Positions 8,995 to 30,678 of a stretch of DNA of 64,000 bases are shown one piece after another (the stretch's first letter is position 1; every line of letters begins with the position of its first letter). The position numbers and the translations under genes are program-made. The stretch comes from Minisyncoccota bacterium. Its GTDB lineage: Bacteria; Patescibacteriota; Minisyncoccia; Phycocordibacterales; JAGLPS01. The DNA lies in contig JAGLPS010000006.1 in NCBI GenBank assembly GCA_023137185.1, positions 683 to 64,682 of the forward strand. The letters are read 5' to 3'. The notes beneath the pieces are model-generated. The model was not told the origin of the DNA. It worked only from the letters and a program-made list of their open reading frames with translations, and made no database searches.

Positions 8995-9099
8995 AAATGC
9001 CTTCATTCATACGCGCGCTGCTAACTTTCACTTTATAGCAAGTAATCGAAACGCGCAGACTATTGTAGTTAGATGTTAAATTAAGAGCAAGGCTTGCTC

Positions 9100-12027: not shown

Positions 12028-12057
12028 AATTCAATACAGTTATTTATACCAAGAAAA

Positions 12058-12579
12058 TTACTCCGGAAAAACACCCAAAGCGTCATTAAAACGGTTAATG
12101 TAATTGAAAAGTCCAATGACCGCGGTAAGCTCAACAAGTTCTTCGTCGTTAAAATACTTCTTTACATTTTCAATAACTTTCGGGTCTATCTCATACGCTT
12201 TTTTAGTTACAGCCCTCGCAAATTCCAGTGCCGCGTGTTCTCGCTCATCTGCTTTCTCAACTATTTTTGAAACATCTTCATCAGTAAGCCCGAACTGGCG
12301 AAGTTGTATATGTGTAACATCAAGGCAGAATTCGCATTTATTGAGACGCGACACCTCATCAGCCACTTTCCACTTAAGAATCGCCGGAAGCGGCGCATCA
12401 TCCATTGTCGCTTTAAACAGTGTAAAGAAACCAACAAGAATATCCTCGCAATTTGCCATTACTTTCATCCATTTAGGCACCTTTTTACCCGCCGATGTAA
12501 ATTGTTCGTAAAACTCCCTTGTCTCATCTTTTACTTCTTCAGCAGTAACTAAATGAACAATAGGTTTTGAGTCTGCCAT
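12058..12579 (-). CDS. Carboxymuconolactone decarboxylase (AhpD-like) family protein
   Basis: 173 aa; CMD-domain-like C-terminus; 30-nt gap to the downstream transporter suggests an operon. Confidence 0.5.
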   Translation of the reverse strand: MADSKPIVHLVTAEEVKDETREFYEQFTSAGKKVPKWMKVMANCEDILVGFFTLFKATMDDAPLPAILKWKVADEVSRLNKCEFCLDVTHIQLRQFGLTDEDVSKIVEKADEREHAALEFARAVTKKAYEIDPKVIENVKKYFNDEELVELTAVIGLFNYINRFNDALGVFPE

Positions 12580-12670
12580 AATTTTAATACGAATTAATCG
12601 TTTAACTTATTACTTCGCGACACATCTCTATTCTAACAAAAAAAGTCTGAACAAATAACCTATCTGCCGA

Positions 12671-12700
12671 GCCCCTGCGGGGCTCGGCAGACGGTTTACA
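12671..12700. repeat. GC hairpin tctgccgagcccc-tgc-ggggctcggcaga (copy 1; identical copy at 14108-14137)
   Basis: 13-bp perfect stem, two identical copies flanking element B plus the two permease-half genes. Confidence 0.6.
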
Positions 12701-12799
12701 ACATATATTTTGGTATCGACTTATAGTTTCTATCGCGAGGGACTACATTTATTGTAATTGTGGAGAATGCCCCGTCGGCTTGCCCTTAATAATCCGGGC

Positions 12800-13092
12800 A
12801 GGCAGCGGGGATGAATCCGCAAGTATAAAGAAGCGTCGGCGGAGCCGACACCTCTACAACAAAGTTTGCCCCGATGCCTCGCCTAATACCTCGCCGAGGT
12901 ACTCCGAGGGAACAGCTTGCCCCCACACCTGTTTTCCCGTGGTATTTTGTCACCTAAGCCGATGTATTCATAGTATCGGAAAGCACCAGCCATACTTTTT
13001 ACAATTACATTATCCTTGAAAATACTGTGACAACGGGAAAACAGGTGTGGGGGTTTGTTGCGGGAATAGGACGAGGCTAAACTTTATTAAGG
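12800..13092. repeat. Structured element B: inverted partner of element A, carrying an extra ~125-nt insertion with a 20-bp stem
   Basis: Plus strand here is approximately the reverse complement of 4132-4312. Shared blocks ggggatgaatccgcaa, gtcggcggagccgac, caacaaagttt, gatgcctcgcct, cctcgccgagg, gggaataggacgagg. Insertion cccccacacctgttttcccg...cgggaaaacaggtgtggggg. The terminal 27 nt overlap the stop of the 13077 gene. Confidence 0.5.
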
Positions 13093-13583
13093 AATTTATC
13101 AACTATTACTCCATTAATAACCGAAAATACTATTATGTATAGAGTGAGAACAAGCGTAAAAGATAAACCAAAATAATAAATCATTAAAGGTAAAAGAGGG
13201 ACTTTAATGGCGCGGCTGTACAAAAATGCGACAATGAATGAGTTTTTCATTCCCTTCTCTCTTAGATTACTCAATAGCGGGTACCATATGTATATTGGTC
13301 CCGAAGACATAATACCTCCAATAATCGAGGCTGCCCATCCTTTTATTCCCACATCTTTACCAACATATTTTACGATTTTTTTGGTATCAAGAAAGATATT
13401 TGATAAAAAAATGAGAGTAAATCCAAGTAAAAGGATTGGCAAAACTTGCAGACATAAAGCAAGAGAGGCTTCAAGCGCCCGTTTGGCTATTGAAACATCT
13501 ATTATTGACGTAACCGCGTATAAAACAGCAACAATTATAAGAAAAAAGTATCTTCCATTAATATTTCGCGGTGTTATTTTCAT
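13077..13583 (-). CDS. Putative permease half (DUF318/COG0701-like), C-terminal half
   Basis: 168 aa, 5 hydrophobic segments, GGIMSSGPIYIWYPLL motif; abuts the upstream half. Confidence 0.4.
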   Translation of the reverse strand: MKITPRNINGRYFFLIIVAVLYAVTSIIDVSIAKRALEASLALCLQVLPILLLGFTLIFLSNIFLDTKKIVKYVGKDVGIKGWAASIIGGIMSSGPIYIWYPLLSNLREKGMKNSFIVAFLYSRAIKVPLLPLMIYYFGLSFTLVLTLYIIVFSVINGVIVDKFLNKV

Positions 13584-14658: not shown

Positions 14659-14844
14659 TTAAGCGGTTTTTGTTTTGGAAGTGTTATCGTAAAATACTTT
14701 TCTTTGGTCTTCGTTTGCGCGCCTTGCCGCCTCTGTAATTATTTTCTTTTTTTCCTTACTTGACGCTTCAAGGAAAAAACGCGAAAACTTGCTTGAGAGT
14801 TTCCCTTTAACTTCTCTCTTGAATATAAAATTAAATAGTTTCAT
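14659..14844 (-). CDS. Small basic hypothetical protein, overlaps the zeta-like gene end by 14 nt
   Basis: 61 aa, lysine-rich; weak. Confidence 0.25.
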   Translation of the reverse strand: MKLFNFIFKREVKGKLSSKFSRFFLEASSKEKKKIITEAARRANEDQRKVFYDNTSKTKTA

Positions 14845-15562
14845 GACTTTTCAGCAACTCTTCTAATTGATTTTTAGTGTATTTGAATTTTATACAGTTG
14901 TCAATTTTATTGATATTTGCCTTAAACTGAATTGTCTGGTGTTTAAAATCTTTTTCCACAAGATAAATTGTAATATTTTTACCAAAATGCTCTTTTAGTT
15001 TGTTTACGACATCCCTTGCTGCGATAAACTGCTCGATGAAAGTCTCTTTTAGTATCCTACGACCATCTTTTTCTTCACGGCGTATGGTAAATTCCCATGC
15101 AATAACCGGATCTTGATAAATATAAAAAATAAAAATAGTTCGGTTTTTATCTAGGGAACGTTGAATATTATCTTTTGCTTTTTCCAAATTTGAAAGAGTA
15201 CCATCAAGAATGAAGTTTTGTTCGTTCGTTAGTACACTATCGTGAATTTTTTCCACAGCAATTGAAACTGCTCCTTGAAATAAATAAGCGTTGCCACCGG
15301 TATAGCCGGGTAATTTGTTTCTAATTTCATCAGCGTCAATACGTGCTACATGACTTTTGTTATCATCCCAGAGATTTTTAAGCAATCCTTTTGAAAATTC
15401 CGTCTTCCCCGCTCCGGGAGAACCCGCCATAAAAACAGATACTGGCGTGGTATCCGGAAATATTTTCTCGGGGTCGGCAAATTCTTGAACGATTTTTTTA
15501 AAGTTTTCCCTCTTTTTTACAAACTTAATTGCTGCTCTTTTAATATCTTCTTCAGATAACAT
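14831..15562 (-). CDS. Zeta-toxin-like P-loop kinase (PF06414-like)
   Basis: 243 aa; Walker A GSPGAGKT, DADEIR, overall zeta/UNAG-kinase-like layout; leaderless start 7 nt after a TAGAAT -10. Confidence 0.55.
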   Translation of the reverse strand: MLSEEDIKRAAIKFVKKRENFKKIVQEFADPEKIFPDTTPVSVFMAGSPGAGKTEFSKGLLKNLWDDNKSHVARIDADEIRNKLPGYTGGNAYLFQGAVSIAVEKIHDSVLTNEQNFILDGTLSNLEKAKDNIQRSLDKNRTIFIFYIYQDPVIAWEFTIRREEKDGRRILKETFIEQFIAARDVVNKLKEHFGKNITIYLVEKDFKHQTIQFKANINKIDNCIKFKYTKNQLEELLKSHETI

Positions 15563-15570
15563 AAACTTAA

Positions 15571-15665
15571 TTCTACACCACTTCCCCGCCTACGCGCACA
15601 CAAGTCTAAATTTTAGGGAATTAAGACAAATTATCGAGAAATTATCGAGGTTCAACCTCGATAAA
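15571..15665 (-). promoter_or_regulatory. Duplicated ~95-nt upstream region (copy 1) with -10-like gtggtgTAGAAT directly before a leaderless ATG, plus palindrome ttatcgag-N4-ttatcgaggttcaacctcgataa
   Basis: Near-identical to 16939-17045, which precedes the NYN gene. Palindromic core atcgaggtt-c-aacctcgat is also present at 47.8 kb and 54.6 kb. Confidence 0.5.
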
Positions 15666-16931: not shown

Positions 16932-16938
16932 AATGCTA

Positions 16939-17045
16939 TTCTACACCACTTCCCCGCCTACGCGCGCACAAGTCTAAATTTTAGGGAATTAAGGCAAATT
17001 ATCGAGAAATTATCGAGGTTCAACCTCGATAATTTCTCGATAAAC
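16939..17045 (-). promoter_or_regulatory. Duplicated upstream region (copy 2) containing a perfect 45-nt palindrome ttatcgagaaattatcgaggtt-c-aacctcgataatttctcgataa (16999-17043) and the leaderless promoter of the NYN gene
   Basis: direct sequence comparison with 15571-15665. Confidence 0.5.
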
Positions 17046-17693: not shown

Positions 17694-19136
17694 CTACAAT
17701 TTTAATTGATTATTTGATGAATTACGATTGTTTTTTTCAATCTCCTCCTCAACTCTCCTTTTCGCTTCTTCTAAAAGCTCTTTGCTTTCTTTTCTCAATT
17801 TATGGCTTTCCTGTATTTTTTCTGCAATCTGTTTTTGAATTTTTGGGTTGATAAGAGGAATTTTAAATTTTTCAAAATCTGATGGTTTTAGATGGGCGAT
17901 TATTGCTCCGCCTGATAATTTTTCAACTTGCGTTTTAGAAATAATGGAATTGAAAATCAGAGACAGGCATTCTTTTTCAAAAGTTTGATATTTGTCTTTT
18001 AGGCTCAATCTTAAAAACGCTCCGCTCAAAATTAGATCAAATTCTTCTTTGACGACATAACTTAAACCGATTGTTCCATCTTTGGTAAATAAAATATCGT
18101 CCCGTTTAGGCTGATAATCATTTTTTAATTCCTGATAAAGCCCTTTTGAAATTTTCTTGCCTGTGTCTTTAACTCCGTTTATTGAAAAATCCGAAACTCT
18201 CCCAAATGACATTCCGTCCTGCTGATATGTTTCGCTCCCAACCTCAACGCCTTTTTTCCAATTCACTATATTTTTAACAAAATTCCAGCCGTTTTTATAA
18301 TTTTCAATCTTTTTAATTATCTCATCATATTTCGGCTGAAAATATTCCGCGTCAAATCTCCCCGCCTCGTCTGTTTCTTTTTTTGTAGTTTGAAATGATA
18401 AAATATGCTCTAGCTTGTAATCCCCTCCTTTGCCAAGGCTTCGGCGGGCAGGCAACAAATCAACCTCTTTCAAAAGCGTTTCTTCGGCTTGTTTGTAAAG
18501 TTGTTTTGATTGGGTTTGTTTTTCGTAAGCGAACTTTACGATTTTTTCTATTTGGAGTTGGAAAGATTGAGGAAGGATTGGGATTTTTAAATCAGTAAAA
18601 TTAAAAACGTTTAATTTGGGTTGTGCGTTACCGCTTATTCTTCTTAATATTTGATTTTGACCATACTTTGAATTTAAAAAAGTTAAAATAAAATATTTTA
18701 TTTCTTCATTGTAATTCTCTAGTTTTATACCGATATTATTTTCAGAGACATTTGCTCTTTTCATTTCATTATCTATTCTTGCAATCAAGCCAATTGTATT
18801 TCCAACTTTTGAGACAACTAAATCGCCTTGTTTTAATTCAGAATTTTTAATCTTATTATTACTATCCTCAGAAATACAAACCATATTTTCTTTTTCTAAA
18901 AAAAATCTTTGTCTTATGTCTTGAACTCTTACAAAATAAACACCTTCATTAAGATATTCTTCACTTTTTAAAGTTGACCCAAAGGGACCTGATACAACCT
19001 CATTTTTTGATAAATAAAAATGTTTTAAATTGTCCAATTTCTCTTCAATCTCCAAATATTCCAGTTTAAAAAACTCCGCGTCAAACCTGCGCGCTTCTTG
19101 AACATCTGATTTTTTGATAATTGAGATTTGTGGCAT
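17694..19136 (-). CDS. hsdS: Type I restriction-modification specificity subunit
   Basis: 480 aa; two target-recognition domains separated by conserved coiled-coil repeats; N-terminus MPQISIIKKSDVQEARRFDAEFF. Confidence 0.85.
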   Translation of the reverse strand: MPQISIIKKSDVQEARRFDAEFFKLEYLEIEEKLDNLKHFYLSKNEVVSGPFGSTLKSEEYLNEGVYFVRVQDIRQRFFLEKENMVCISEDSNNKIKNSELKQGDLVVSKVGNTIGLIARIDNEMKRANVSENNIGIKLENYNEEIKYFILTFLNSKYGQNQILRRISGNAQPKLNVFNFTDLKIPILPQSFQLQIEKIVKFAYEKQTQSKQLYKQAEETLLKEVDLLPARRSLGKGGDYKLEHILSFQTTKKETDEAGRFDAEYFQPKYDEIIKKIENYKNGWNFVKNIVNWKKGVEVGSETYQQDGMSFGRVSDFSINGVKDTGKKISKGLYQELKNDYQPKRDDILFTKDGTIGLSYVVKEEFDLILSGAFLRLSLKDKYQTFEKECLSLIFNSIISKTQVEKLSGGAIIAHLKPSDFEKFKIPLINPKIQKQIAEKIQESHKLRKESKELLEEAKRRVEEEIEKNNRNSSNNQLKL

Positions 19137-19142
19137 ATTATT

Positions 19143-20948
19143 TTAACTTTCCAATTTATCTTTTATGAAATTAAAAATTTCCTTAAAATTTTTCTTTGTT
19201 GTGTTTAACAAATTAAAACTTTCGCCCTTAATGAAAAGTTCTTGAATGGCTGTATTAAATTTACTTTTTTCATATTCCACGCTATCAGGAAAAGATAATT
19301 TTTGAATCCTCAATCTCTCCGCAGAAGTATGAAATAGTTTTTCAGTTTGAAAATTGCTAAAATTTTCTTTTATTTCTTTCAGGGTAAATATGTGCTTTTT
19401 TAATTCTTCACTTACATTATTTAAATAATTTTTTTTCGCTCTTTTTCCCGGAATGTCATCATCAAAAATTGCAATAAATTTTTTGTTATTTGCTAAATAT
19501 TCGCGAAAAATATTCTCGTGCTTATCAACTCCTGCCCCAGGATAAAAGTTAAAATCATAATCATCATTAAAAAATTGCTCTTTTACCCATTTAAACGTGT
19601 AGTAATCAAATTTACCTTCAGTGAAAACAATGTTTTTAGTCTGCTCAAAAGGATTTTTAATATATTCTAAACAATCTAAAATTGGCTGAAAGTGTGTTTC
19701 CTCGTTTTCATTGTTTGCAACAAAATTCCTATATAGTTCTGCGTCAATATTCTGGCTGTAGTTTTCCATATCAATCACTCCGCTACTGTCTTCTTTTCTG
19801 CCTTTGTCTTTCACAACAAATGAAGTAAGTAAAAATTTTGGATTTAATAAATAGTGGCTATGTGTTGAATAAATTATTTTTGATCTGTCAATTAACTTTT
19901 CAAAAAGTTTTAGCAATTTTTGCTGGGATCCTTGATGTAAATTACTTGCTGGTTCATCAAATAAAAATAAATATTCTCCTTTTTCAGTTTGTCTTGCCTT
20001 TCTAAATTCAGTAAAAAGCAAAAAGCCAAAATACCATCTAAAACCCAAACTCATTTCATTGATGTAAAAACTGCTTGCCCCCTCTTTAATTTTAAATTGC
20101 AAAAAATAACCATTGGTATCTTTATTATGTTCAATTTCAATATTCTTTCTTGTTGAATTAGAAAAAATTTGTTGCCAAGACTGCACTATGACAGAATTTA
20201 ATTTTTGACTCATTTCATTTAATATTTGTTTTGCGGATTCTTCATCATCCTCGCTTGTACTTTTTAATCTATCTAGAATATGTTTATTTAAATTATAAGA
20301 CTCATCAATGCTACTTAAAATGTCTTGTAAAATTTTTCTATATTCTTTTTGAGTGTCCGTTTTTGTTAATTCCGAATTTTCAATATTTTCAAGATAAATT
20401 TTGTCAGGAAAATCAAATAGAAAATTTTCAAAATACAAAATTTTTGGAATTAACTTTTCTTTAATTTCTGTTGTTAACGCATCCCAATGTTCGTTGTATC
20501 TATCGTACATATCAACAAAATTTTTTGCTTGTTTTGTCTTTACTTTTAAATCAATGTTCCACAAAACACTAAAACCTCTATCAATAAATTTAGAATCTTT
20601 GAATTTATATTTTTTAGTAATTGATATTTCATCTATTTCTTTTTCTAATTCTAATTTTTTCTTTAGTAAAAAAGATTCAATAAATTTTTTGTCATCATTA
20701 CCCAATTTTAAAGTTGCTTTAATTGTTACTACATCGTTAAAATTTGCTTTTTTATTCTTATGTATCATCTCGTGCTCGCTGCCCTCAATTTTATTTTGAA
20801 ATAAATCTATTGCTTCTAAAATTGTAGTTTTTCCGCTCTCGTTTAACCCAACTAATGGAAAAATTTCTCCATTCGGTTGTTTTGTTAAATCTAAAACAAG
20901 ACTATTTATCCCTTTAAAATTTTTTATTTTGAATTTAATGTATTTCAT
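19143..20948 (-). CDS. OLD-family nuclease: N-terminal ABC ATPase fused to C-terminal Toprim domain (Gabija GajA / class-1 OLD-like)
   Basis: 601 aa; Walker A GLNESGKTT, Walker B LFLFDEPASNLH, H-loop YSTHSH; Toprim glutamate (VFTEGKFD) and DxD (IFDDD); stop is 6 nt before the hsdS ATG. Confidence 0.75.
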   Translation of the reverse strand: MKYIKFKIKNFKGINSLVLDLTKQPNGEIFPLVGLNESGKTTILEAIDLFQNKIEGSEHEMIHKNKKANFNDVVTIKATLKLGNDDKKFIESFLLKKKLELEKEIDEISITKKYKFKDSKFIDRGFSVLWNIDLKVKTKQAKNFVDMYDRYNEHWDALTTEIKEKLIPKILYFENFLFDFPDKIYLENIENSELTKTDTQKEYRKILQDILSSIDESYNLNKHILDRLKSTSEDDEESAKQILNEMSQKLNSVIVQSWQQIFSNSTRKNIEIEHNKDTNGYFLQFKIKEGASSFYINEMSLGFRWYFGFLLFTEFRKARQTEKGEYLFLFDEPASNLHQGSQQKLLKLFEKLIDRSKIIYSTHSHYLLNPKFLLTSFVVKDKGRKEDSSGVIDMENYSQNIDAELYRNFVANNENEETHFQPILDCLEYIKNPFEQTKNIVFTEGKFDYYTFKWVKEQFFNDDYDFNFYPGAGVDKHENIFREYLANNKKFIAIFDDDIPGKRAKKNYLNNVSEELKKHIFTLKEIKENFSNFQTEKLFHTSAERLRIQKLSFPDSVEYEKSKFNTAIQELFIKGESFNLLNTTKKNFKEIFNFIKDKLES

Positions 20949-20970
20949 GAGTGATTAAATTAAAATTAAA

Positions 20971-21096
20971 TTATCTCCAAAACCCCAACCCATTCTCCCT
21001 CCCCCACTTCTCAAAAGCAAAAGCGATCTCGTCTAAGTCGTCAAACTTGCGCGCTTCTTGAACATCTGATTTTTTTATAATTGAAATTTGAGGCAT
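20971..21096 (-). other. Junction repeat 2 with chimeric 41-aa mini-ORF MPQISIIKKSDVQEARKFDDLDEIAFAFEKWGRENGLGFWR (hsdS N-terminus fused to hsdM C-terminus)
   Basis: Start 2 nt after the stop of the upstream cassette gene. Its stop lies 22 nt before the OLD ATG, reproducing the native hsdM-stop/hsdS-start spacing. Confidence 0.6.
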
Positions 21097-21098
21097 AG

Positions 21099-22025
21099 TT
21101 AATTTTTAATTTTAGAAACCTCTGATGGCTCAATTTCTTTCCCTTCTGGTTTAGGGTTAAATTCTATACTTTTATAATTTTTACATTGAAATAATTGATA
21201 TTTAATAAGTTCATCAAACTTCAAATTTCCTTTTTTTAGATCTGATGGATGAATTACAATAATTAATTTTTCGCAAATCGCTTTATATTTAGATGTATCT
21301 ATAAAAGTATCTATAATTTGCTTAATAATAATTTCTCTGGTTAGCTCAGGATTTCTTCCATGTTGTGCATTTATTAGAGGAATCACAATAGATTCATCTT
21401 TACTTGAATCAGAGGAAAGAAATTCCCATAATCCATTTAAGCTAAGCATAAAATCATCTATAGAGGATTTGACTCTATCATTTTTTTGTTTCTTTGAATT
21501 TACAAGTAAATAAAACCTTTTTATTTTATTTTTAAACAATTTCTTTTTTTGCTTTTCTATTTCAATAACCTTTCCTATCTCAAAAGGAGTATCCCTAATA
21601 TTTATTTTTTCCTTTATTTTATCGTCTAGTTGTTTTGAATCATTATTAAAATAATCTTTAATTAATTTATTCTGAATACTTTTTGCTTCTTTAACATTTC
21701 CATTCAGGGATGTATCAAAATAATTATTAAACGGAACTATTTGTGAACCTTTAACATTAAAAGCATCTCCAATTTTCAACTCAATGCAAGAGTCTCTATC
21801 TCTAATTTTTATAGAATGAGATGATTTCGGATAATTTTTAAAAATTGCATATAAAAAACTTGAACCTAAAATGCACCAAAATATTAAAGGAAGATTTAAT
21901 CTTTCACTTACAGAAGAGAAAAAATATGAAATAATTTCTGTGATTAGCCACAAAAAACCAAGACAAGAAAGAAAGTCTTTAATAGCAAAACGCCAATTTT
22001 GTATCCATCTTTTTATTAAGATCAT
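21099..22025 (-). CDS. Two-TM membrane protein with ~230-aa cytoplasmic C-terminal domain of unknown family (candidate effector/sensor of the TIR cassette)
   Basis: 308 aa; two N-terminal hydrophobic helices; start overlaps the TIR gene stop (ATGA). Confidence 0.45.
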   Translation of the reverse strand: MILIKRWIQNWRFAIKDFLSCLGFLWLITEIISYFFSSVSERLNLPLIFWCILGSSFLYAIFKNYPKSSHSIKIRDRDSCIELKIGDAFNVKGSQIVPFNNYFDTSLNGNVKEAKSIQNKLIKDYFNNDSKQLDDKIKEKINIRDTPFEIGKVIEIEKQKKKLFKNKIKRFYLLVNSKKQKNDRVKSSIDDFMLSLNGLWEFLSSDSSKDESIVIPLINAQHGRNPELTREIIIKQIIDTFIDTSKYKAICEKLIIVIHPSDLKKGNLKFDELIKYQLFQCKNYKSIEFNPKPEGKEIEPSEVSKIKN

Positions 22026-22528
22026 AATCCTAGTTGCTGGTAAACTGTATCTTTGTAATGATAAGCTCCTGTTTTATCATTATTTCTAAAAGAAGAATCT
22101 GAATCAAACCAATCATCAATAGCATGTTCAATTATCTTTTGTTTAAAATTCACATGAACAGCTAATTCGTCTTTTAGTATTGTTGGACATAAATCAGAAT
22201 CCATACTTGTTTTCCCATTTAAATTTACTACAATAATCGGAATATTTCTTTTTATTGCCTGCTCAATTTCCCAACGAACAAATTTATAAAGATGTTTCGT
22301 ATTATCTCCCACAAGAAGAATAAAAACTTTCGTGTTTCTTAATCGTTCAGCAAGTTTTGCCTTAATAGTTTCTTCTGTAGAATCTGACATAAGATTATTT
22401 AAATCATGAGCATCATAAAAATTAAATGAAGTATTATCACTTTTTTTCCAAGCTTGCATTAAACGATAATAATGAATGTCATTATCTGCATCAAAAGCAA
22501 CATATGTTTTGTTTGTATAAATTGTCAT
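22022..22528 (-). CDS. TIR-like domain protein (DUF1863/ThsB-like)
   Basis: 168 aa; YVAFDADNDIHYY N-terminal strand and KVFILLVGDNTKH..WEIEQAIKRNIPIIVV pattern of bacterial TIR-like (ThsB) domains. Confidence 0.6.
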   Translation of the reverse strand: MTIYTNKTYVAFDADNDIHYYRLMQAWKKSDNTSFNFYDAHDLNNLMSDSTEETIKAKLAERLRNTKVFILLVGDNTKHLYKFVRWEIEQAIKRNIPIIVVNLNGKTSMDSDLCPTILKDELAVHVNFKQKIIEHAIDDWFDSDSSFRNNDKTGAYHYKDTVYQQLGL

Positions 22529-22567
22529 AAAAATATTTTAGATTAATAAATTAATTTTTCCAAAAAT

Positions 22568-22879
22568 TCAACTCTTCCTTTTCACAAGAGTTTTTCCTGT
22601 TTTACCTCTTCGTAATTGGACTTTCGGCATATTCTTTTTTGCGTGATCCAAAGCCTCATCATTAAAACCTTTTGTTGAAACAATTACATCTGCATGGTTT
22701 TGTTGATACGCTTTTTGTAATTGAAATTTCGTAAGAGGCTTTTTGTAATCTTTCACTTCAACTTTATCTCCTCCCTTTTTAATATCTGGATTATTTGGTC
22801 CAGCTTTTCTTGTGCCATCAATTCCTTTGGCGACTTTTTTCTCTGCTCGTTTTCCTTTTTTTGCATTGTTATCTGTCAT
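22568..22879 (-). CDS. Small basic protein with possible minimal PD-(D/E)xK motif
   Basis: 103 aa; NNPDIKKGGDKVEVKDYKKP could be PD...ExK; weak. Confidence 0.3.
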   Translation of the reverse strand: MTDNNAKKGKRAEKKVAKGIDGTRKAGPNNPDIKKGGDKVEVKDYKKPLTKFQLQKAYQQNHADVIVSTKGFNDEALDHAKKNMPKVQLRRGKTGKTLVKRKS

Positions 22880-22907
22880 ATTATTTTAAATTAAAAAATT
22901 AATAAAT

Positions 22908-23039
22908 TTATTTCCAAAAACTCAACCCATTCTCCTTCCCCCACTTCTCAAAAGCAAAAGCGATCTCGTCTAAGTCGTCAAACTTGCGTGCTTCATTGAA
23001 TATCTGTTTTTTTATAATTGAAATTTGCGGCATAGCCAT
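22908..23039 (-). other. Junction repeat 1 with chimeric 43-aa mini-ORF MAMPQISIIKKQIFNEARKFDDLDEIAFAFEKWGKENGLSFWK
   Basis: Nucleotide-level copy of the hsdM 3' end joined to the hsdS 5' start; start 1 nt after the stop of the 379-aa gene. Confidence 0.6.
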
Positions 23040-23040
23040 T

Positions 23041-24180
23041 TTAATTTATATGATAATGCTTAATTGCATTATTTCGAATAACTAAAAGATAACTTTCTGT
23101 TTTCCAGCATTGTTGATTATCACATATCTCACTAACATATTCTTTTTCATTAAAAATAACGAAGTTTATCTCTTTTAAAAATGTATTTCCACAAACAAAA
23201 TTCTTAATAAAATCTTTATTTTTTATATTTCCAATTAAATATAAAGTTTCCAAATTTGATTTTGTAAATTCCTCTATATATCTTTTGTAAGGAGCACTAC
23301 CTTGCTCATAAATTTTGTCTGTTTTCCCGATTATAATCATTCCAAATTTACAATAATTACCTAAAAATCTATTATCGGTTTCTTCATTGATTTTTCGCCT
23401 TGAATAATTATTTAAAAATTTTATTAAATTTGTAACCTCTGTAATAATTAAATCGTCTTTTCTATTATTAAAAACTTTTTCTCCTAAAAAAATCATCTCT
23501 TGAATAAAGACAGGAAAAAATAATCCTTTTTTATCAATACTTTGATATTTAACAAATAAATCATCAACTATTTTTTCTTCTATTTTTGGATGTAAAAAAT
23601 CTTCAATAAATTCTTTTACGACATCTTCTTTCTCCTCTTCAAATATTTTCTTGCCAACAAATAAATCTATAGATTCTTTTTGTTTTTCACTTATATATCT
23701 TTTTGCTTTAATTAATAAATTTTCTGCTATAAAAATCATAGTTGCATTAACAAAGTTTTTATTTTCATTATCATTTTTCCTTATTCTAACAATCATTTTT
23801 CCATTCTCTAAAAAAGATTTTGGTATTTCACTATCACTTACCCATTCCACTTTTAGTTTTATTGGCATAAAACCTTTAATTTCTCTTTTTAAAAAACCGT
23901 TAACAAAAGAATTAGTTCTACTTTGAAAATCATGCTGGATATATTTTTTCCTGATTACGGGAACTGTTTTAAAAATTTTTGATAATGCTTTATAAAATAA
24001 TGCAATAAATTTTTCAAATCTATCGGGATAAAATACAGCACAAACAAAAACTATGAAAAATAAAAACCAACCGCCGTATGCGAACATACAGTCAAAAAAA
24101 ACTTTCGCGCTTTCCCCGTCATTAAAATTTATATTAATTGGCATATTTATTTTAAATATACTAATAGTTTTTTTATACAC
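23041..24180 (-). CDS. Hypothetical protein with one N-terminal TM helix (cassette 1)
   Basis: 379 aa, Lys/Glu/Phe-rich, no recognisable motif. Confidence 0.4.
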   Translation of the reverse strand: MYKKTISIFKINMPININFNDGESAKVFFDCMFAYGGWFLFFIVFVCAVFYPDRFEKFIALFYKALSKIFKTVPVIRKKYIQHDFQSRTNSFVNGFLKREIKGFMPIKLKVEWVSDSEIPKSFLENGKMIVRIRKNDNENKNFVNATMIFIAENLLIKAKRYISEKQKESIDLFVGKKIFEEEKEDVVKEFIEDFLHPKIEEKIVDDLFVKYQSIDKKGLFFPVFIQEMIFLGEKVFNNRKDDLIITEVTNLIKFLNNYSRRKINEETDNRFLGNYCKFGMIIIGKTDKIYEQGSAPYKRYIEEFTKSNLETLYLIGNIKNKDFIKNFVCGNTFLKEINFVIFNEKEYVSEICDNQQCWKTESYLLVIRNNAIKHYHIN

Positions 24181-24380
24181 TCAGGCGAATCGCACACAAA
24201 TTTTATATCTTCTGATTTTTTAAATAAAGAATGCAAGTTTTCAACATTAATTATATTTTTGCAAAATTCACATTTTTTTCTTCCTTGTACAAAATCATCT
24301 AAAATGCCAAGCCTTTTCAGCATTCCTTTTAAATCATCATCGTATACTAGATTGATTTTCTTTTTTTCTTTTTTGAACAT
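24147..24380 (-). CDS. Small protein with C-terminal CxxC...C..C zinc-ribbon-like motif
   Basis: 77 aa; CEFCKN...CDSPEC. Confidence 0.3.
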   Translation of the reverse strand: MFKKEKKKINLVYDDDLKGMLKRLGILDDFVQGRKKCEFCKNIINVENLHSLFKKSEDIKFVCDSPECIKKLLVYLK

Positions 24381-24404
24381 ATTAATTTATTTATTTTCAA
24401 AAAA

Positions 24405-25070
24405 TTATTTTTCATCTCTCTTTTCAATAGCTTCTTTGGAATTTTCTGGTAAATCGTTATAAAAACTGTCAATTTCTTTTTGTTCTGTAATCATTTTTTC
24501 TGCTATAAAATTTAGCAATTCAAAAAGTTTCAAGACTTTTTCTGTCTCTTCTTCAAGATTTATTTCTCCTGGGTGAACCGCACCATTTCCTGTTATTCTA
24601 AGTATATCCAAAGATTTTTGAATTTGAGGATTCAACCCTTTTTTAACTAACTCCTTTATGTCATCATTTATATTTTTTCCTTTTTCACCAAGCTGTTTGC
24701 AAAGTTTTTGTAACGCTAATCTTAAAAGTGCAGCAGATGCTCGCGGAGAATCACTAAAAATATTTGCCGCTTCTAAATAATCCTTTTTAATGTCACCAGA
24801 CAAATCATCGTTAGGCAGATCAACAATCATTTTTTTAGGATATATAATTTCATTTTCAAGCCAAATTATTTTTTCGCTACAATGTTTGCATCGTGACATT
24901 TTCCATTCACTTGATAAATTCTCGTTAAACTTGCTAACACCGTAAAAATCATCTCCATAAACATGATGACCTGTAATATGTCCCCATTGTTGCTCTGCAA
25001 ATACTCCACAGTGCGGACAATGGAATTCGCCGTAATTCAATATTGGTGGATAATGTTTTTCTTTTGTCAT
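24405..25070 (-). CDS. Zinc-finger + DUF4145 domain protein
   Basis: 221 aa; CPHCG...CKHCSEK N-terminal Zn finger; C-terminal LRLALQKL...ILRITGNGAVH pattern of DUF4145; starts 21 nt after the hsdM stop. Confidence 0.55.
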   Translation of the reverse strand: MTKEKHYPPILNYGEFHCPHCGVFAEQQWGHITGHHVYGDDFYGVSKFNENLSSEWKMSRCKHCSEKIIWLENEIIYPKKMIVDLPNDDLSGDIKKDYLEAANIFSDSPRASAALLRLALQKLCKQLGEKGKNINDDIKELVKKGLNPQIQKSLDILRITGNGAVHPGEINLEEETEKVLKLFELLNFIAEKMITEQKEIDSFYNDLPENSKEAIEKRDEK

Positions 25071-25091
25071 ATTTTTATTCTTAAATTTATA

Positions 25092-27119
25092 TTATCTCCA
25101 AAAATTCAACCCATTCTCCTTCCCCCATTTCTCAAAAGCAAAAGCAATATCGTCTAAATCGTGTTTTTGTTTTAGGTGGTTATGCTCATCAAGTTTTCTT
25201 TCTCCATTTTTATCAACTTCGTAAATCTCATCCCCCGAATTATCTTTGCCTGAATTTTCACTCACCGCCATAAATATTTTATAATCATCAACCTTTGGAT
25301 TGATTTTTTCATCCCATTTCTGCACAAACAAGACAGAAGTTTTTGTTCCCGTATGCGGTTTGAAAGTATTGCCGTCAAGCCCGACCACCGCTAAAAGGCG
25401 CGCCCGCTCCATTATAAAATCCCTGATCCTTTCATCGCTCGTATTATTAAACCTTCCCTGCGGCAAGACAATCGCCATTCTTCCGCCCGGTTTTAGAAAA
25501 TCCAGATTCCTTTCAATAAACAAAATGTCTCTTGAAATATTATCAATCTGCTTGTCTTTTTTATAAGCCACTTCATAGCAAGCCGTCATCCTTTTATCTT
25601 TAATATCTCCGGCAAAAGGCGGATTCGCCATTACCAAATCAAAATTAAATTCTTTTGGATTTTTTCTGTCTTTCGCCAAATCCAGCAATCTGTAAAAACC
25701 CTCTAAATAAGTTCTGCTCCATTCCCGGTCTTTCAGTTTTTCTTCCCACCTTGTGTAATCAAGCGAATTCAAATGCAAGACATTTGTCCTGCCGTCGCCC
25801 GCAATCATATTTAAAGTCCGCGCGACACGAACCGATTTTTCGTCAAAATCAATCCCGAAAACTTTTAAGACATATTCCTTTTGCTCTTTGGTCGGTTTCT
25901 GATTTGAAAAATTGCTGAATTGCGCCTTGCCGTTGCCTTTTAATTTTTCCCAAACATTAAAAAGCGTATGTACTGTAAATCCGCAAGACCCGCAAGCCGT
26001 ATCTATCATATACTCGCTTGGCTTTGGATTAAGCATATAAACGCACATATCAATTACATTTCTTGGCGTAAAATACTGTCCTTTTTCTCCTTTGGCGGAT
26101 TTGTTGACCAGATATTCAAACGCTTCGTCAATCACCTGCAGATTGGAATTGAAGAGTTTTACATTCTGCAAAAATCCGACGCAGATTTGCAGATGGTTTT
26201 CATCCGTAATGCGAAGCGGTTCGCCTTTTTCAAAAATTCCCGGCCATTTTTCTTTGGCTTTCTGAAAAAGATTATTGATGACTTCTTTCGTATGATGCGC
26301 ATCGCCGCGACTTCTGAATTCCAGTTGCGTTAATCCTTTTATTTTAACTTTAGCCAAAATTTCTTTATCAGATAAATCAGGATTTTCTTCTCTTAGTTCT
26401 TTAAATTTCCACTCTATTTTTTGCCTATCTTCCGAGCTTTCCATTTCATCATAAAGCTTGATAAAAATCAGTTTAAAAACTTCTTCAAAAACATCCACGC
26501 CGGCATTTGCCAGAACTTCGTCCTCCATTTCCTGAATTAAAGTTTTCAAAGATTTTCTTTCTTCCTGAAGCTTGTCTTTTTGCATCAGTTCCAAATAAGT
26601 AAAAATTTCGTTTTTTACATCGTCTATTGTTTCATTCGCTTTTGGAATATCAGAAAGCGGTTCAAAATAATTAGGATCCAATCGCTCGTAATAATTTATT
26701 TCTGTTCCGTTCGTCCAAACCGCCAAAGGTGCGCCTGTCGCGTTTGTGTAGCTTTTCAACTGGTCTTTCCCATCTTTCGCTTTGTGCTTTTTAATTTCCA
26801 AAACACAATAAACGCTCGTTTTATCTTTTTTATTTAAAATAATAATATCCGCTAGCTTCTTTTCCCTGCCAAAAGAAATAGAAAATTCAACCCTTATCAA
26901 ATCAACGGGATAATTATATTCATTAAGAAGTTTATCAAGCGTTAATTGCCTCACAATCTCCTCCGGCTTTGCTTGAATGTCTTTTTCTCTTTTCAAACAT
27001 TTAATAAAATGCTTTCCTTTTTTCTCAAAAATGCTTTTCTCAACTCTGTCTATGCTTTCCGCGGAAAAAGTCGTCAAATCATATTTCCCGCCTGATTTTA
27101 TAAGTTGCGATAGATTCAT
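25092..27119 (-). CDS. hsdM: Type I restriction-modification DNA methyltransferase subunit
   Basis: 675 aa; N6-adenine MTase motifs DTACGSCGF (motif I) and NPPF (motif IV); HsdM N-terminal domain. Confidence 0.9.
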   Translation of the reverse strand: MNLSQLIKSGGKYDLTTFSAESIDRVEKSIFEKKGKHFIKCLKREKDIQAKPEEIVRQLTLDKLLNEYNYPVDLIRVEFSISFGREKKLADIIILNKKDKTSVYCVLEIKKHKAKDGKDQLKSYTNATGAPLAVWTNGTEINYYERLDPNYFEPLSDIPKANETIDDVKNEIFTYLELMQKDKLQEERKSLKTLIQEMEDEVLANAGVDVFEEVFKLIFIKLYDEMESSEDRQKIEWKFKELREENPDLSDKEILAKVKIKGLTQLEFRSRGDAHHTKEVINNLFQKAKEKWPGIFEKGEPLRITDENHLQICVGFLQNVKLFNSNLQVIDEAFEYLVNKSAKGEKGQYFTPRNVIDMCVYMLNPKPSEYMIDTACGSCGFTVHTLFNVWEKLKGNGKAQFSNFSNQKPTKEQKEYVLKVFGIDFDEKSVRVARTLNMIAGDGRTNVLHLNSLDYTRWEEKLKDREWSRTYLEGFYRLLDLAKDRKNPKEFNFDLVMANPPFAGDIKDKRMTACYEVAYKKDKQIDNISRDILFIERNLDFLKPGGRMAIVLPQGRFNNTSDERIRDFIMERARLLAVVGLDGNTFKPHTGTKTSVLFVQKWDEKINPKVDDYKIFMAVSENSGKDNSGDEIYEVDKNGERKLDEHNHLKQKHDLDDIAFAFEKWGKENGLNFWR

Positions 27120-27200: not shown

Positions 27201-27710
27201 TTAAATCATCCCTCCAGAGGCGGGCAGGCAGGCGAAATACCGAGAGCGTCCGCGATTTTTTAACTGTGTCAATGGTGGGGTTTGGCGTTGCGCGTCGCCG
27301 ACCGCTTTCATAAACTCATCGTAGTTTTTGGCAATGCGTTTGCGATTTATTGTATACCCTTGAACAAGATATTCTTTTAATATCTTGTTCGCCCACTTCC
27401 TAAATTCAACAGCTTGAGCGGAATTTGTTCTATATCCTACGGATAAAATAACATCAAGAGAATAAAAAGAAACCGGCTTATCTGAATTTGCAATGTGCAT
27501 TTTTTGCACATTGCTTTTTTCACTTATTTCTCCAGATTTAATGATCGTTCTAATATGCTTTGTGATCACAGATCGTTCTACACTAAAAACTTCAGCAATC
27601 TGTGCCTGTGTCGCCCATATATTTTCATGCTCAAAATCGCCTCGAAGTTCAATCGCTCCGTTTTTTGCTTGATAAATAATTATATTGTTTGCTGTTTTTT
27701 TCTTTTTCAT
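27201..27710 (-). CDS. RhuM-family (virulence protein RhuM / DNA-binding) protein
   Basis: 169 aa; IYQAKNGAIELRGDFEHENIWATQAQIAEVFSVERSVITKHIR matches the RhuM family commonly found beside hsdM. Confidence 0.7.
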   Translation of the reverse strand: MKKKKTANNIIIYQAKNGAIELRGDFEHENIWATQAQIAEVFSVERSVITKHIRTIIKSGEISEKSNVQKMHIANSDKPVSFYSLDVILSVGYRTNSAQAVEFRKWANKILKEYLVQGYTINRKRIAKNYDEFMKAVGDAQRQTPPLTQLKNRGRSRYFACLPASGGMI

Positions 27711-27889
27711 AATTTATATTTCGCTTTAAACATCCCTCCAAAGGCGGGCAGGCAGGCGAAACGCCGAGCGCGTCCGCAATTTTTTAACTGTGTCAATAGT
27801 GGGGTTTGGCGTTGCGCGTCGCCGACTACTTCGGCGTCTTTGCGCATAATGTTTTGGATATTTTTGATGATGTTTTGTATTTCGGACAT
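27707..27889 (-). pseudogene. Duplicated 3' fragment of the RhuM gene (~100 nt) fused to unrelated N-terminal sequence
   Basis: 27722-27820 is ~90% identical to 27208-27305; encodes ...VGDAQRQTPLLTQLKNCGRARRFACLPAFGGM. Confidence 0.5.
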
Positions 27890-27890
27890 A

Positions 27891-28985
27891 TTATTTCCCT
27901 CTTTGAGCTTCTGTTATCGCGCGATCAACCATAAATCGCACGGCTTCATTCATATGAAGATTTTCAATCTTTATAGATGGATGTTTTTTCTGAAAAACCC
28001 GATATATTTCATCCGCAAATGCCTGACCAACCATAGGAACATTTTCATAATCCAACGCAACAACCTTGAACTTTTCAAGACCGGAAAGAACACGCCGCGC
28101 TTGCGAGCGCGATATATGCACTCCCCCCGCAATATATAGACGTACATACACTTCAGTCTTATCAAAACCGTACTCACCACCAACACCCGTGTCAGTATAT
28201 TTACGAAAAATATCATTGAGATGATGCCTGTCGTCTATGTTGATACGAAATGTAACTTTTGTCCCCTGTTTTTGACCTTTAACTTTTTTTACAAATATAT
28301 CGTCTATTTTATTGTTTGCAATAAATTGGTACCCGTAACTATCGAGAATAAATTCATCACCAACTTTTGACGTAAAGAAAATACCTTCACCGGAATGAAG
28401 TTTTGGCTCAGTTGTCATCTTGCCCTTGAGAAGGTCTTGTATTGCTTCCATTTCCGATTTAAGATGTCGTTTTTTCATAATATTACGATATACTCCTACA
28501 CCAAAATCATCGACGGCAAACGACAACTCATCGTCATTTAATGAAACCGAAACATTAATTTTCTTTGAACCGGAGTGTTCAATTGCATTGTTCAGCATCT
28601 CAGAAAAAGCGTATGTAAAAATACTTTTTATATTTTCCGAAAATCGACTAAATGGAAGAAATCTGTGTTCTATGTCATCAAGAACGATATGTTCTTCAAG
28701 ACCTTTGTTAACAAGTTGTCTGGTATATATATTTGGAGTAACATCCGGATGCTCTTGAATGTATTCCACCGTCGCATACCTCGCCGAACGCGTTGAACCA
28801 AGTTTTATAAGCTTTTTTTCTTCAACAAGATTAGATATGAGCTTGTTCGCATATTGCCGAGAAACTCCAAAAGAACCCGCGATATTACGGCTTTTAATTA
28901 TCCCTTTTTCCTGCGCTATTTTAAGAATGTGTTCCGTGTTTATCATATGTAAACTGATTGTAAACAATCGGTTTACAATTGTCAA
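27891..28985 (-). CDS. wHTH + GHKL-type ATPase (HATPase_c) + STAS-like (DUF4325) protein
   Basis: 364 aa; N-terminal HTH, N-box EMLNNAIEHSG, C-terminal STAS-like region. Confidence 0.5.
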   Translation of the reverse strand: MTIVNRLFTISLHMINTEHILKIAQEKGIIKSRNIAGSFGVSRQYANKLISNLVEEKKLIKLGSTRSARYATVEYIQEHPDVTPNIYTRQLVNKGLEEHIVLDDIEHRFLPFSRFSENIKSIFTYAFSEMLNNAIEHSGSKKINVSVSLNDDELSFAVDDFGVGVYRNIMKKRHLKSEMEAIQDLLKGKMTTEPKLHSGEGIFFTSKVGDEFILDSYGYQFIANNKIDDIFVKKVKGQKQGTKVTFRINIDDRHHLNDIFRKYTDTGVGGEYGFDKTEVYVRLYIAGGVHISRSQARRVLSGLEKFKVVALDYENVPMVGQAFADEIYRVFQKKHPSIKIENLHMNEAVRFMVDRAITEAQRGK

Positions 28986-29005: not shown

Positions 29006-29194
29006 CTATGCAGTATACAACTGCCTCTCAATCTCCTCCGGCTTCGCCTGAATATCGCTCTTTCTTTTCAGGCATTTAACAAAAAACTTTTTGTTTTTCT
29101 CAAAAATCTTTTTTTCAACCCTGTCTATACTTTCCTCGGAAAAAGTCGTCAAATCATATTTCCCGCCTGATTTTATAAGTTGTGATAAATTCAT
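29006..29194 (-). pseudogene. Duplicated 5' fragment of hsdM (first 57 codons, ~235-nt repeat including the upstream region)
   Basis: MNLSQLIKSGGKYDLTTFSEESIDRVEKKIFEKNKKFFVKCLKRKSDIQAKPEEIERQL vs the hsdM N-terminus; 29000-29233 approx equals 26925-27158. Confidence 0.7.
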
Positions 29195-29238: not shown

Positions 29239-30678
29239 TCACATCAAAAGAAAATATTTTAATGGAATTTTCAACGCGTTTGCTTCTGCATTATATTCTA
29301 AAACATCAGTTCCTTCTGAAACAACAATGCCACAAGTCGCTTTTACTTTTTCTGCTGTCTGCGTTACCTGCTTATATTCCTTTTTATTCATTCCGACCTC
29401 AAGCACGATTTTGTTTTCTCCACTGCTTAATATAAAATCAGCCCCGCCTTTCGCGCTGTCATAAGTAAGAGAAAAAGACGGCTTTTTGTCGCACAAACGA
29501 TAAAGATACATTCCAATCAGATCTTCCAGAAGTTTTCCGCGCGCGTTTTGTTCCGTTATGACATTGCCAATTGTTTTGTAATACATCGCGCGAAATGCCG
29601 GCGAAGAAAAGAGATATTTTGACGGTTTTTGCGTTACCTGTTTAAAATGAGAGCCGTGCGGATATACGCGGTGTAAAATTTCCGTTTGTTCAAGGACGGA
29701 AAAAATTTCTGCTATTTTGGGACGAGAAATGCCGAATTTTTCTGCTAGTGTCGTAAAATTCAAAACATCCATATCCGCCACGGCATACAAAATCGCCGAA
29801 ATTCTTCCGATAATATCAGACGAAAGCCCTCGCATTTGCGGAATATCTTTATTGATTACTCGCTCAAGAGATTTATTTATTTGGTCATAAACCAAAGCTT
29901 CATTTTGAAGCGCAATCATAAACGGCAATGAACCGTAATGAAGATAATTTTCAAAATCTAACCGGCTGATGCCATGATAATACTCGTTTATTTTCTGTTC
30001 CGATTTTTTTAGCGCGTTAAATACTTCTCCGGCATTTCGTCCGCTAAGAATAATCTCTCTTAACTTTTGCGATAACCCCTTAATTTCGTATTTGTTTCTT
30101 TTGATTTTAATAAATTCCGTGAATGAAAGCGGATAAATTCTTTCATAAATGGCGCGTCTGGCAATGTCGGAATTGCTGTTTATAAGAGCGGCTGCCGATC
30201 CTGTTGAAAATATAAAGACATTATCCGCACGGTCGTAAATTGTTTTAAGAATCGCTCCCCATTTTTCGTCATACTGCACTTCGTCTAAAAACAAAAACAA
30301 AGGTTTATCCAAGTTTGTGATTGACCGACCGATTATTTCTTCGAAAATATTTATAACTTCATTAATATTACTTCCAAGAGTTTGCGTGATTTCATCAACA
30401 GAAAGAATTAAAAAGTACCCGTCAATATTTTTCTTGGCGTAATACAGCTGATACATAATTGTTGTCTTGCCGGCTCCGCGCAAACCGGTAAGTGCCACCC
30501 AGCGATAAGATTTATTGCCGCCGAGGAATTGGTCAAAATGAGACTGTATCCGTATAAAAATATTTCTGTTTGGCCTTTTTTTGTTTTGCGTGTCAAAAAC
30601 ATACGCCCGCCCGCGAAAATCGGCTTGAGCAATTTGGTCGTTTATAAATTCTTTGATTTTTTCTTTATTTACAGGCAT
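29239..30678 (-). CDS. AAA+ ATPase with C-terminal DUF4143
   Basis: 479 aa; Walker A GLRGAGKTT, Walker B FLFLDEVQ, typical COG1373 architecture. Confidence 0.75.
   Translation of the reverse strand: MPVNKEKIKEFINDQIAQADFRGRAYVFDTQNKKRPNRNIFIRIQSHFDQFLGGNKSYRWVALTGLRGAGKTTIMYQLYYAKKNIDGYFLILSVDEITQTLGSNINEVINIFEEIIGRSITNLDKPLFLFLDEVQYDEKWGAILKTIYDRADNVFIFSTGSAAALINSNSDIARRAIYERIYPLSFTEFIKIKRNKYEIKGLSQKLREIILSGRNAGEVFNALKKSEQKINEYYHGISRLDFENYLHYGSLPFMIALQNEALVYDQINKSLERVINKDIPQMRGLSSDIIGRISAILYAVADMDVLNFTTLAEKFGISRPKIAEIFSVLEQTEILHRVYPHGSHFKQVTQKPSKYLFSSPAFRAMYYKTIGNVITEQNARGKLLEDLIGMYLYRLCDKKPSFSLTYDSAKGGADFILSSGENKIVLEVGMNKKEYKQVTQTAEKVKATCGIVVSEGTDVLEYNAEANALKIPLKYFLLM

Follow-up and report, generated by a model that had tools for sequence, protein, structure and literature searches.

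Two bodies of work describe the closest known counterparts of the locus considered here, a three-gene cassette on the minus strand between hsdM and hsdS of a type I restriction-modification (R-M) locus, in a 64,000-nucleotide stretch of DNA from a Minisyncoccota bacterium (GenBank assembly GCA_023137185.1, contig JAGLPS010000006.1, positions 683 to 64,682), which is called the window below and in whose own numbering its coordinates are given. The first concerns PD-T7-4, which was found by functional selection in E. coli (Vassallo et al. 2022, PMC9519451) and has been renamed RAZR, the ring-activated zinc-finger RNase (Zhang et al., Nature 2026, PMC13017515). On its own, the E. coli protein defends the cell by abortive infection: its Cys4 zinc ribbon senses ring-shaped phage proteins (portal, recombinase), and the DUF4145 domain, a divergent HEPN RNase, has R146 and H154 as its catalytic residues (PMC13017515). 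Fusions of a zinc ribbon with DUF4145, together with their occurrence in R-M operons, had already been listed in 2013 (Anantharaman et al., PMC3710099). The second body of work concerns the defences nested in modification-based systems, for which seven of the nine candidates tested did defend, the embedded genes usually acting independently (Payne et al., bioRxiv 10.1101/2024.01.29.577857).

The cassette combines a representative of the first group with genes that resemble the second in their location. It consists of the RAZR gene (the 221-amino-acid (aa) open reading frame (ORF) at 24405-25070), the gene of the 77-aa protein here named ZN (24147-24380) and the gene of the membrane-anchored 367-aa protein here named CORE (23041-24144), all on the minus strand; the loci compared with it are designated by L-numbers. 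The reading that we favour, with moderate confidence, is that the cassette is a mobile hsdM-hsdS insert carrying two independent modules, RAZR and the ZN-CORE pair, and that the pair is an autonomous defence module. RAZR is already known, while the pair is uncharacterised and has no match in the libraries searched (Pfam, PADLOC, NCBIfam and PHROGs).

The RAZR Homologue

The membership of the gene 24405-25070 in the RAZR/PD-T7-4 family is secure, as its product matches the PADLOC model PD-T7-4 (PDLC04109) at E=1.8e-87 and 290 bits, with the protein residues 5-220 aligned to the profile positions 3-208 of 211, and Pfam DUF4145 (PF13643) at E=1.1e-17 over residues 100-184. The Cys4 finger (C18-x2-C21 and C61-x2-C64) is intact, and the segment R158-ITGNGAV-H166 has the same R-x7-H spacing as R146 and H154 of E. 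coli RAZR. Both the DUF4145 domain and the N-terminal C4 finger attributed to this protein by an earlier annotation made from the letters of the window alone (the sequence-only reading) are therefore real; the fusion of the two, which that reading also noted, is likewise present as an arrangement, but it is the canonical RAZR architecture and not a novel one. The window copy shares with E. coli RAZR its length class, the order of the Cys4 ribbon and the DUF4145/HEPN domain, the R-x7-H spacing and the full-length match to the hidden Markov model. It differs in coming from a low-GC, probably Patescibacteria-type genome and in lying between hsdM and hsdS, not beside an integrase; besides, divergence is expected in its zinc-finger domain, on which the phage specificity depends in E. 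coli and Klebsiella. By analogy, the window copy may possess RNase and anti-phage activity, in which case its zinc finger would sense ring-shaped phage proteins such as portal or recombinase, as in E. coli, the protein would then assemble into a large 24-mer ring, and the HEPN domain would cut RNA non-specifically, thus aborting the infection. It is an ordinary further member of a characterised family.

ZN-CORE as a Conserved Two-Gene Unit

The partners of RAZR in the cassette form a unit of their own. An exhaustive profile search with CORE retrieved, at E<=1e-3, 1,243 clusters (50% identity), 526 of which reach E<=1e-30, and a word-based search gave 117 homologues, all of about 350-380 aa, all without a Pfam domain and all labelled 'hypothetical'. 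The gene surroundings were compared in 36 CORE loci from species-representative genomes and in 80 CORE loci from metagenomes, 64 of the latter having enough upstream sequence and 77 a callable CORE ORF. A ZN homologue was found directly upstream of CORE on the same strand in 29 of the 36 genome loci, the other seven being contig-edge cases or fragments, or in 29 of 30 in the tally of the pairing; among the 64 metagenome loci, 62 have ZN in this position. The called genes overlap by 1-11 nucleotides (nt) or are separated by 2-3 nt, and the pairing spans the phyla of the candidate phyla radiation, Bacteroidota, Acidobacteriota, Actinomycetota, Nitrospinota and Chloroflexota; as a whole, the CORE family is spread patchily over at least eight phyla. 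Even the distant subfamily with cold-shock domains retains a ZN-like partner (E=3.6e-9). ZN and CORE thus constitute a conserved, translationally coupled two-gene unit.

RAZR, by contrast, is a neighbour of the pair in three settings only: the window, the relatives of the window at 86-89% identity (L037-L040) and L030, a Saccharibacteria locus with the order RAZR-ZN-CORE, a 3-nt gap between RAZR and ZN, overlapping ZN and CORE ORFs and a CORE only 30% identical. No RAZR homologue stands beside the pair in 35 of the 36 genome loci, nor in any of the 77 metagenome loci with a callable CORE ORF, and DUF4145 accounts for just two of 141 immediate neighbours of the pair. Since RAZR acts alone in E. 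coli and is absent beside the pair in nearly all loci, the treatment of the three genes as one functional system, implicit in the sequence-only reading, does not hold, and the cassette is better described as one mobility unit with two modules.

The three minus-strand ORFs reported by that reading do exist, at 24405-25070 (221 aa), 24147-24380 (77 aa) and 23041-24180 (379 aa); however, the 34-nt overlap that it noted between the latter two holds only with GTG 24180 as the start of CORE. All 23 aligned homologues begin at a Met matching the ATG at 24144-24142, so that the probable start is ATG 24144 rather than GTG 24180, CORE is 367 aa long and the overlap vanishes as a start-codon artefact. 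The sequence from the ZN stop codon (24149-24147) to this ATG reads TAA-AT-ATG, that is, with a 2-nt gap.

Embedding of the Pair in Restriction-Modification Operons

The pair is embedded in R-M operons of three types, though the neighbour annotation of many loci is based on single-sequence searches and summary counts. In the type III systems, the order Mod-ZN-CORE-Res occurs in L002 (Saccharibacteria) and in L048 (part of a conjugative element, with overlaps among all four genes), and Mod-ZN-CORE occurs in L001. A type II arrangement, methylase-ZN-CORE-TdeIII, is found in L003 (Gracilibacteria). The type I arrangements include, besides the window, hsdM-hsdS-x-ZN-CORE in L005, hsdM...ZN-CORE-hsdR in L129 and L130, ZN-CORE-hsdR in L124, and L034. 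In L047 and L123, the pair stands beside Vsr-Dcm-BglII, and in Alistipes ihumii and A. shahii (L041-L046), it lies between HTH-hsdM-hsdS-hsdR with a Mob_Pre relaxase on the one side and the genes of aromatic amino-acid biosynthesis on the other. The pair is common among the Alistipes of the human gut; the Alistipes cluster has 146 members, and its RefSeq entries WP_302164717.1 and WP_349911659.1 are of cultured human-gut source (224 and 378 contigs, respectively); the presence of the pair in cultured gut bacteria makes it experimentally testable. As raw counts over the 141 immediate neighbours, taken from 88 non-redundant loci, the five commonest Pfam families all belong to R-M systems (N6_N4_Mtase, ResIII, T1RH-like_C, SWI2_SNF2 and T1R_D3-like), and the other families include BsobI, NgoPII, TdeIII, Type_ISP_C, BrxL, DUF4145, AAA_21 and integrases. 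The homologues are thus often placed inside or beside R-M operons and mobile elements, not in the predominantly housekeeping surroundings that would have spoken against a role in defence. The defence reading of the position between hsdM and hsdS holds as well, given that the RAZR family is of demonstrated anti-phage activity and that the pair often resides in R-M operons.

A comparable position is known for the abortive-infection genes of the PrrC/RloC type. These accessory genes are carried inside the hsd operon and co-transcribed with it, as the pair is placed in the type I operons of the window, L005, L129/L130, L124 and L034; prrC sits immediately upstream of hsdR, and in L129/L130, the pair is likewise found just upstream of the hsdR homologue and downstream of hsdM. 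However, the pair has neither an ABC ATPase nor an anticodon-nuclease domain by Pfam and PADLOC, and since it occurs in operons of types II and III as well, and also apart from R-M genes, a specific guard relationship with one enzyme is unlikely.

Boundaries and Mobility of the Cassette

The discreteness of the cassette, which the sequence-only reading had assumed, has been confirmed and strengthened by the analysis of its ends. Upstream, it is flanked by the 3' end of hsdM (25092-25178, minus strand), the master copy of a repeated flank sequence; the whole hsdM gene (25092-27119, minus strand) encodes N6_Mtase and N-terminal HSDR_N_2 domains by Pfam, the latter nuclease-like. Downstream, it is closed by a 140-nt chimeric repeat of the hsdS 5' and hsdM 3' ends (22901-23040, minus strand; repeat families D2, D3 and D6), a second copy of which lies at 20964-21103 on the same strand. 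In each of these two junctions, ~62 nt from the beginning of hsdS are joined in frame to ~75 nt from the end of hsdM, giving a 43-aa remnant ORF, and the copies of the repeat family D2 are situated at 25085-25178, 22901-22994 and 20964-21057. The two junctions have the same crossover point, and related remnants are seen also at 25085-25178 and 19079-19143. The order of the minus-strand array is hsdM, the three cassette genes, the junction, a Thoeris cassette, the second junction, a 601-aa ATPase and, at the end of the array, hsdS (17694-19136). The island is a trough of GC content, with 22-29% against ~41% for the window.

The same block was recognised in another genome. The window segment 25152-22976, flank remnants included, aligns by blastn at 86% DNA identity with positions 8990-11169 of L037, the Parcubacteria contig JAGLIN010000012, the common block carrying an hsdM 3' remnant of ~60 nt upstream and an hsdS 5' remnant of ~65 nt downstream. 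The hsdM gene itself is gone from L037, and extra hsdM 3' remnants flank a RhuM gene there; the remnants of this contig are located at 7187-7356, 8382-8451, 9001-9047 and 11101-11183. In L034, a Patescibacteria contig, the 5' end of hsdS follows directly after CORE at 86% identity. As the shared block is delimited by conserved hsdM and hsdS ends, the three genes make up a true mobility unit, and the matching design of the junctions and the remnants in L037 suggest that such cassettes may be gained or exchanged by recombination at these conserved gene ends. The hsdM 3' and hsdS 5' remnants common to several genomes point to a simple recombination route for swapping defence cassettes between R-M loci. 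The cassette ends are hsdM and hsdS fragments rather than the imperfect palindromes of the integron attC type, and a Pfam scan of 20 ORFs of the island (about 13-35 kb of the window) gave no integrase, the other small ORFs being outside the scan.

A scan of 17.5-27.4 kb detected no intergenic minus-strand terminator within the cassette, which is probably co-transcribed with hsdM, the missing terminator being weakly consistent with the read-through. The predicted promoters in the same region, 49 against 43 expected from shuffling, are not above the expectation.

Structure of CORE and ZN

The 379-aa form of CORE gave nothing above noise in Pfam, NCBIfam, PHROGs and PADLOC; a permissive Pfam scan of 65 CORE homologues showed no recurring weak family, and the family profile had zero hits among the PDB sequences at E<=10. 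The AlphaFold2 (AF2) model built with 65 sequences (pLDDT 85.5, pTM 0.80) starts with a long hydrophobic helix at the N-terminus, continues with two helices of basic character, a sheet of three strands and six helices, and ends in a C-terminal beta-alpha-beta-alpha-beta-beta domain. The single N-terminal transmembrane helix named in the sequence-only reading proved to be a feature of the whole family, since 58 of the 65 members have, within the first 60 residues, a 19-residue window with a Kyte-Doolittle value >1.6. Acidic residues precede the helix, and the segment after it has a mean net charge of +5 and is positive in 100% of the members, which implies that CORE is a bitopic inner-membrane protein of the N-out/C-in topology, its bulk being predicted to be cytoplasmic. 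The invariant polar residues are N130, K148, Q155, E216 and Y302. A nuclease of the PD-(D/E)xK type was sought on the three-strand sheet and the conserved E216...K223 segment, and the idea was dropped because the strands bear no acidic residues.

The C-terminal domain consists of the strand 266-272, helix 275-295, strand 300-306, helix 307-325 and strands 328-341 and 346-358, the last two forming a long beta3-beta4 hairpin, with the block-mean pLDDT mostly 91-96 (86 for residues 271-280). The search of the full model against the PDB with Foldseek revealed no whole-protein match; however, about 20 chains of the Alba/Sso10b type were matched over ~95 residues with the probability 0.99-1.0 and target TM-scores of 0.52-0.74, and these hits were placed on the C-terminal domain by topology, as the Foldseek output has no query coordinates. 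The other matches were scattered Rossmann and methyltransferase fragments at high rmsd. The C-terminal domain can accordingly be called Alba-like only marginally, on the model. With the members of the Alba superfamily (Sso10b/Alba, Rpp20/Rpp25 and SpoVS-like proteins), the ~100 C-terminal residues of CORE share the topology, the long terminal hairpin and a target TM-score of ~0.7, but there is no similarity of the sequence profiles, and CORE adds the membrane anchor and a conserved domain of ~160 residues with an unmatched fold. The mean net charge of the domain is +4 across the family, and the longer members of the family (500-640 aa) have additional C-terminal cold-shock, NusA-type KH or OB domains or tetratricopeptide repeats; apart from these repeats, the additions are modules that bind RNA or single-stranded DNA, and they fit a nucleic-acid ligand. 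Thus, judging from the model and these additions, CORE probably binds nucleic acid.

The distant relatives P0291, P0273, P0285, P0270 and P0322 carry C-terminal cold-shock domains or KH, with three cold-shock-like repeats in P0291. The locus of P0291 (L051/L052 5702-7839), the sole one examined in this group, has a ZN-like upstream partner and is situated beside tig-clpP-clpX and a sigma factor, and the cold-shock/KH subfamily may serve a purpose other than defence. In BFVD, a single full-length relative came up, the uncharacterised A0A8S5TTG3 from a gut 'Siphoviridae sp.' contig (TM 0.77-0.81), the search being otherwise uninformative.

ZN has two pairs of cysteines, CxxC (C37 and C40) and Cx4C (C63 and C68), borne on beta-hairpin knuckles in its AF2 model (pLDDT 77), in which a helical hairpin is followed by the beta strands with the Cys pairs. 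All four cysteines are invariant in 61 database homologues; in about 12 loci, mostly of Flavobacteriia, two or three of the four have been replaced. These loci include L004, L005, L006, L007, L009, L011, L013, L014, L016, L024 and L049, and their genes read CKFT...PEA in place of CKFC...PEC, the rest of the sequence being retained. Their existence as a group indicates that the metal site of ZN is probably structural. No match to ZN was found in Pfam, PADLOC, NCBIfam and PHROG, nor any recurring weak family in a permissive Pfam scan of the 61 homologues, and the best Foldseek matches, namely, the Rim2 zinc finger, ribosomal eL24-like chains and the ClpX zinc-binding domain, are non-significant (E >= 0.25).

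Possible Function of the Pair and Alternative Explanations

A defence-related role of the ZN-CORE pair is well supported by its context, if unproven, and we consider it fairly likely. As an autonomous unit against phages or other mobile elements carried inside R-M operons, the pair might work through the membrane-tethered CORE, which would bind nucleic acid (the invading DNA, or RNA) at the membrane, and through ZN, which would regulate CORE or give it specificity; the outcome would be either the blocking of the incoming element or an abortive infection at the level of the membrane. This specific mechanism, a membrane-tethered nucleic-acid binder with a small regulator or specificity partner, is put forward only tentatively. 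Both the logic of embedding and the general layout, in which a small protein accompanies a membrane-anchored one, are already familiar. Effectors of defence systems with one or a few transmembrane helices, such as the TM-Macro ThsA of the type II Thoeris in the next cassette, similarly place a cytoplasmic sensing domain after a membrane helix at the N-terminus; however, no signalling partner (TIR or cyclase) is linked to the pair, and the cytoplasmic domain of CORE is unrelated. If the pair defends, it would represent a new membrane-anchored, probably nucleic-acid-binding component of the immune repertoire, and if it assists restriction, a new class of R-M accessory factors.

Several observations weigh against the defence reading. 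The neighbour counts come without a background rate of R-M adjacency; the available flank of many loci contains no R-M gene, and in many complete loci none occurs within 7-10 kb; and some contexts look ordinary, such as that beside clpX and a sigma factor in L051 or that with an acetyltransferase and transposases in L050, as well as the non-defensive one with a terminase neighbour in L004. No relatives of the pair were found in the plasmid and phage record collections by tblastn, nor in IMG/VR by a pattern scan, so that the link to mobile elements is indirect. The Alba match is weak (E 5e-3 to 5e-2, over ~95 residues only), the Alba-like domain of the window CORE itself has a net charge of 0, and no catalytic motif was recognised in CORE, its invariant residues included. 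Finally, neither protein of the pair matches a known defence family in PADLOC v2.0.0, scanned at E<=0.1 with its HEC and PDC candidates. The pair resembles those candidates (Payne et al.; PADLOC-DB v2) in being a short cassette nested in DNA-modification-based defences, but it matches none of their models and thus stands outside the catalogued ones; the origin of its homologues almost wholly from metagenome-assembled genomes and metagenomes, with few cultured hosts, may explain why a catalogue based on RefSeq missed it.

Among the alternatives, a toxin-antitoxin module stabilising the R-M locus or its mobile element, with CORE as the toxin and ZN as the antitoxin, is unlikely, although it accommodates the translational coupling of a small upstream gene to a larger downstream one, the single transmembrane helix typical of membrane toxins, and the association of the pair with transposases, a conjugative element, integrases and resolvases. 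The presumed toxin would be large (367 aa) and would have a conserved structured cytoplasmic region, no similarity to the toxin-antitoxin families emerged in Pfam, NCBIfam and PADLOC, and a DNA-binding domain was not detected in ZN, while the type II antitoxins usually carry such a domain for autoregulation. This explanation, moreover, overlaps with abortive-infection defence and does not exclude a role in defence.

Slightly less likely is that the pair is an accessory of the R-M systems themselves, for example, by holding the incoming DNA at the membrane or by tuning restriction against methylation. Its insertion between the methylase and nuclease genes with stop/start overlaps in the type III and type II operons (L048, L002 and L003), its occurrence with three mechanistically distinct R-M types, and the nature of CORE as a membrane-anchored and probably nucleic-acid-binding protein would all agree with this. 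On the other hand, many complete loci are without an R-M gene within 7-10 kb, a specific partnership with three unrelated R-M architectures is unlikely, and the known embedded genes usually act independently (Payne et al.). The improbable variant of a general restriction helper, in which a membrane-tethered, Alba-like nucleic-acid binder would catch or slow the entering DNA so that the co-encoded enzyme of type I, II or III acts before methylation or replication, would account for the insertion of the pair between methylase and nuclease genes in R-M systems of three unrelated types.

It is still more doubtful that the family is a housekeeping membrane-associated RNA-binding factor hitch-hiking in defence loci, as might be supposed from the distant members with three cold-shock domains or KH, one of them beside tig-clpP-clpX and a sigma factor, and from the ordinary metabolic genes among some neighbours: the distribution is patchy over at least eight phyla, the insertion into R-M operons recurs, and the window copy lies in the low-GC island (22-29% against ~41%), on a cassette common to different genomes. 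Most improbable is one obligate three-component system with the RAZR RNase as the effector and ZN and CORE as its sensor or regulator, which, despite the whole block with its flanks being kept at 86% DNA identity in L037 and the order RAZR-ZN-CORE recurring in L030 with a CORE only 30% identical, is largely excluded by the distribution (RAZR missing in 35/36 genome and 77/77 metagenome loci, DUF4145 in 2/141 neighbours) and by the ability of RAZR to defend alone in E. coli (PMC13017515).

Neighbouring Features of the Island

The array contains two more cassettes on the minus strand. The type II Thoeris cassette (21099-22879) comprises a 103-aa ORF with a weak Mrr_cat match (E=0.004), a TIR-like ThsB (PADLOC E=7.7e-75) and the TM-Macro ThsA (E=2.1e-40), and the third cassette (19143-20948) encodes the 601-aa OLD/AriA-like ABC ATPase with a weak Toprim signal. 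The unrelated Flavipsychrobacter contig L016 has, right downstream of ZN-CORE, a homologue of this ATPase (11205-13106; E=2.4e-14). No hsdR-type match was obtained among the 20 island ORFs scanned with Pfam, larger ORFs elsewhere being outside that scan.

Upstream of hsdM, a RhuM-family gene (27201-27889) is split or truncated into ORFs of 169 aa and 60 aa and has a direct repeat of 107 nt (91% identity). Among the PADLOC candidates, the gene matches PDC-S05 and PDC-S23, and the L037 copy of the RAZR-ZN-CORE cassette is adjoined by a full-length RhuM. The N-terminus of hsdM recurs 2 kb upstream, at 29006-29194, as a 62-aa copy (213 nt, 88% identical), which points to a past rearrangement. The upstream edge of the island is occupied by a protein with HATPase_c and DUF4325 (STAS-like) domains and by an AAA_14/DUF4143 ATPase (27891-28985 and 29239-30678, respectively). 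On the other side of the array, 95-nt direct repeats at 15570-15664 and 16938-17032 (98% identity) bracket a small gene with an FtsK-gamma domain and a gene with an NYN domain; the second repeat has a perfect 22-nt palindrome (16999-17043) and a 34-nt inverted match to the first one at 97%, and a zeta-toxin gene (14831-15562) adjoins this repeat region.

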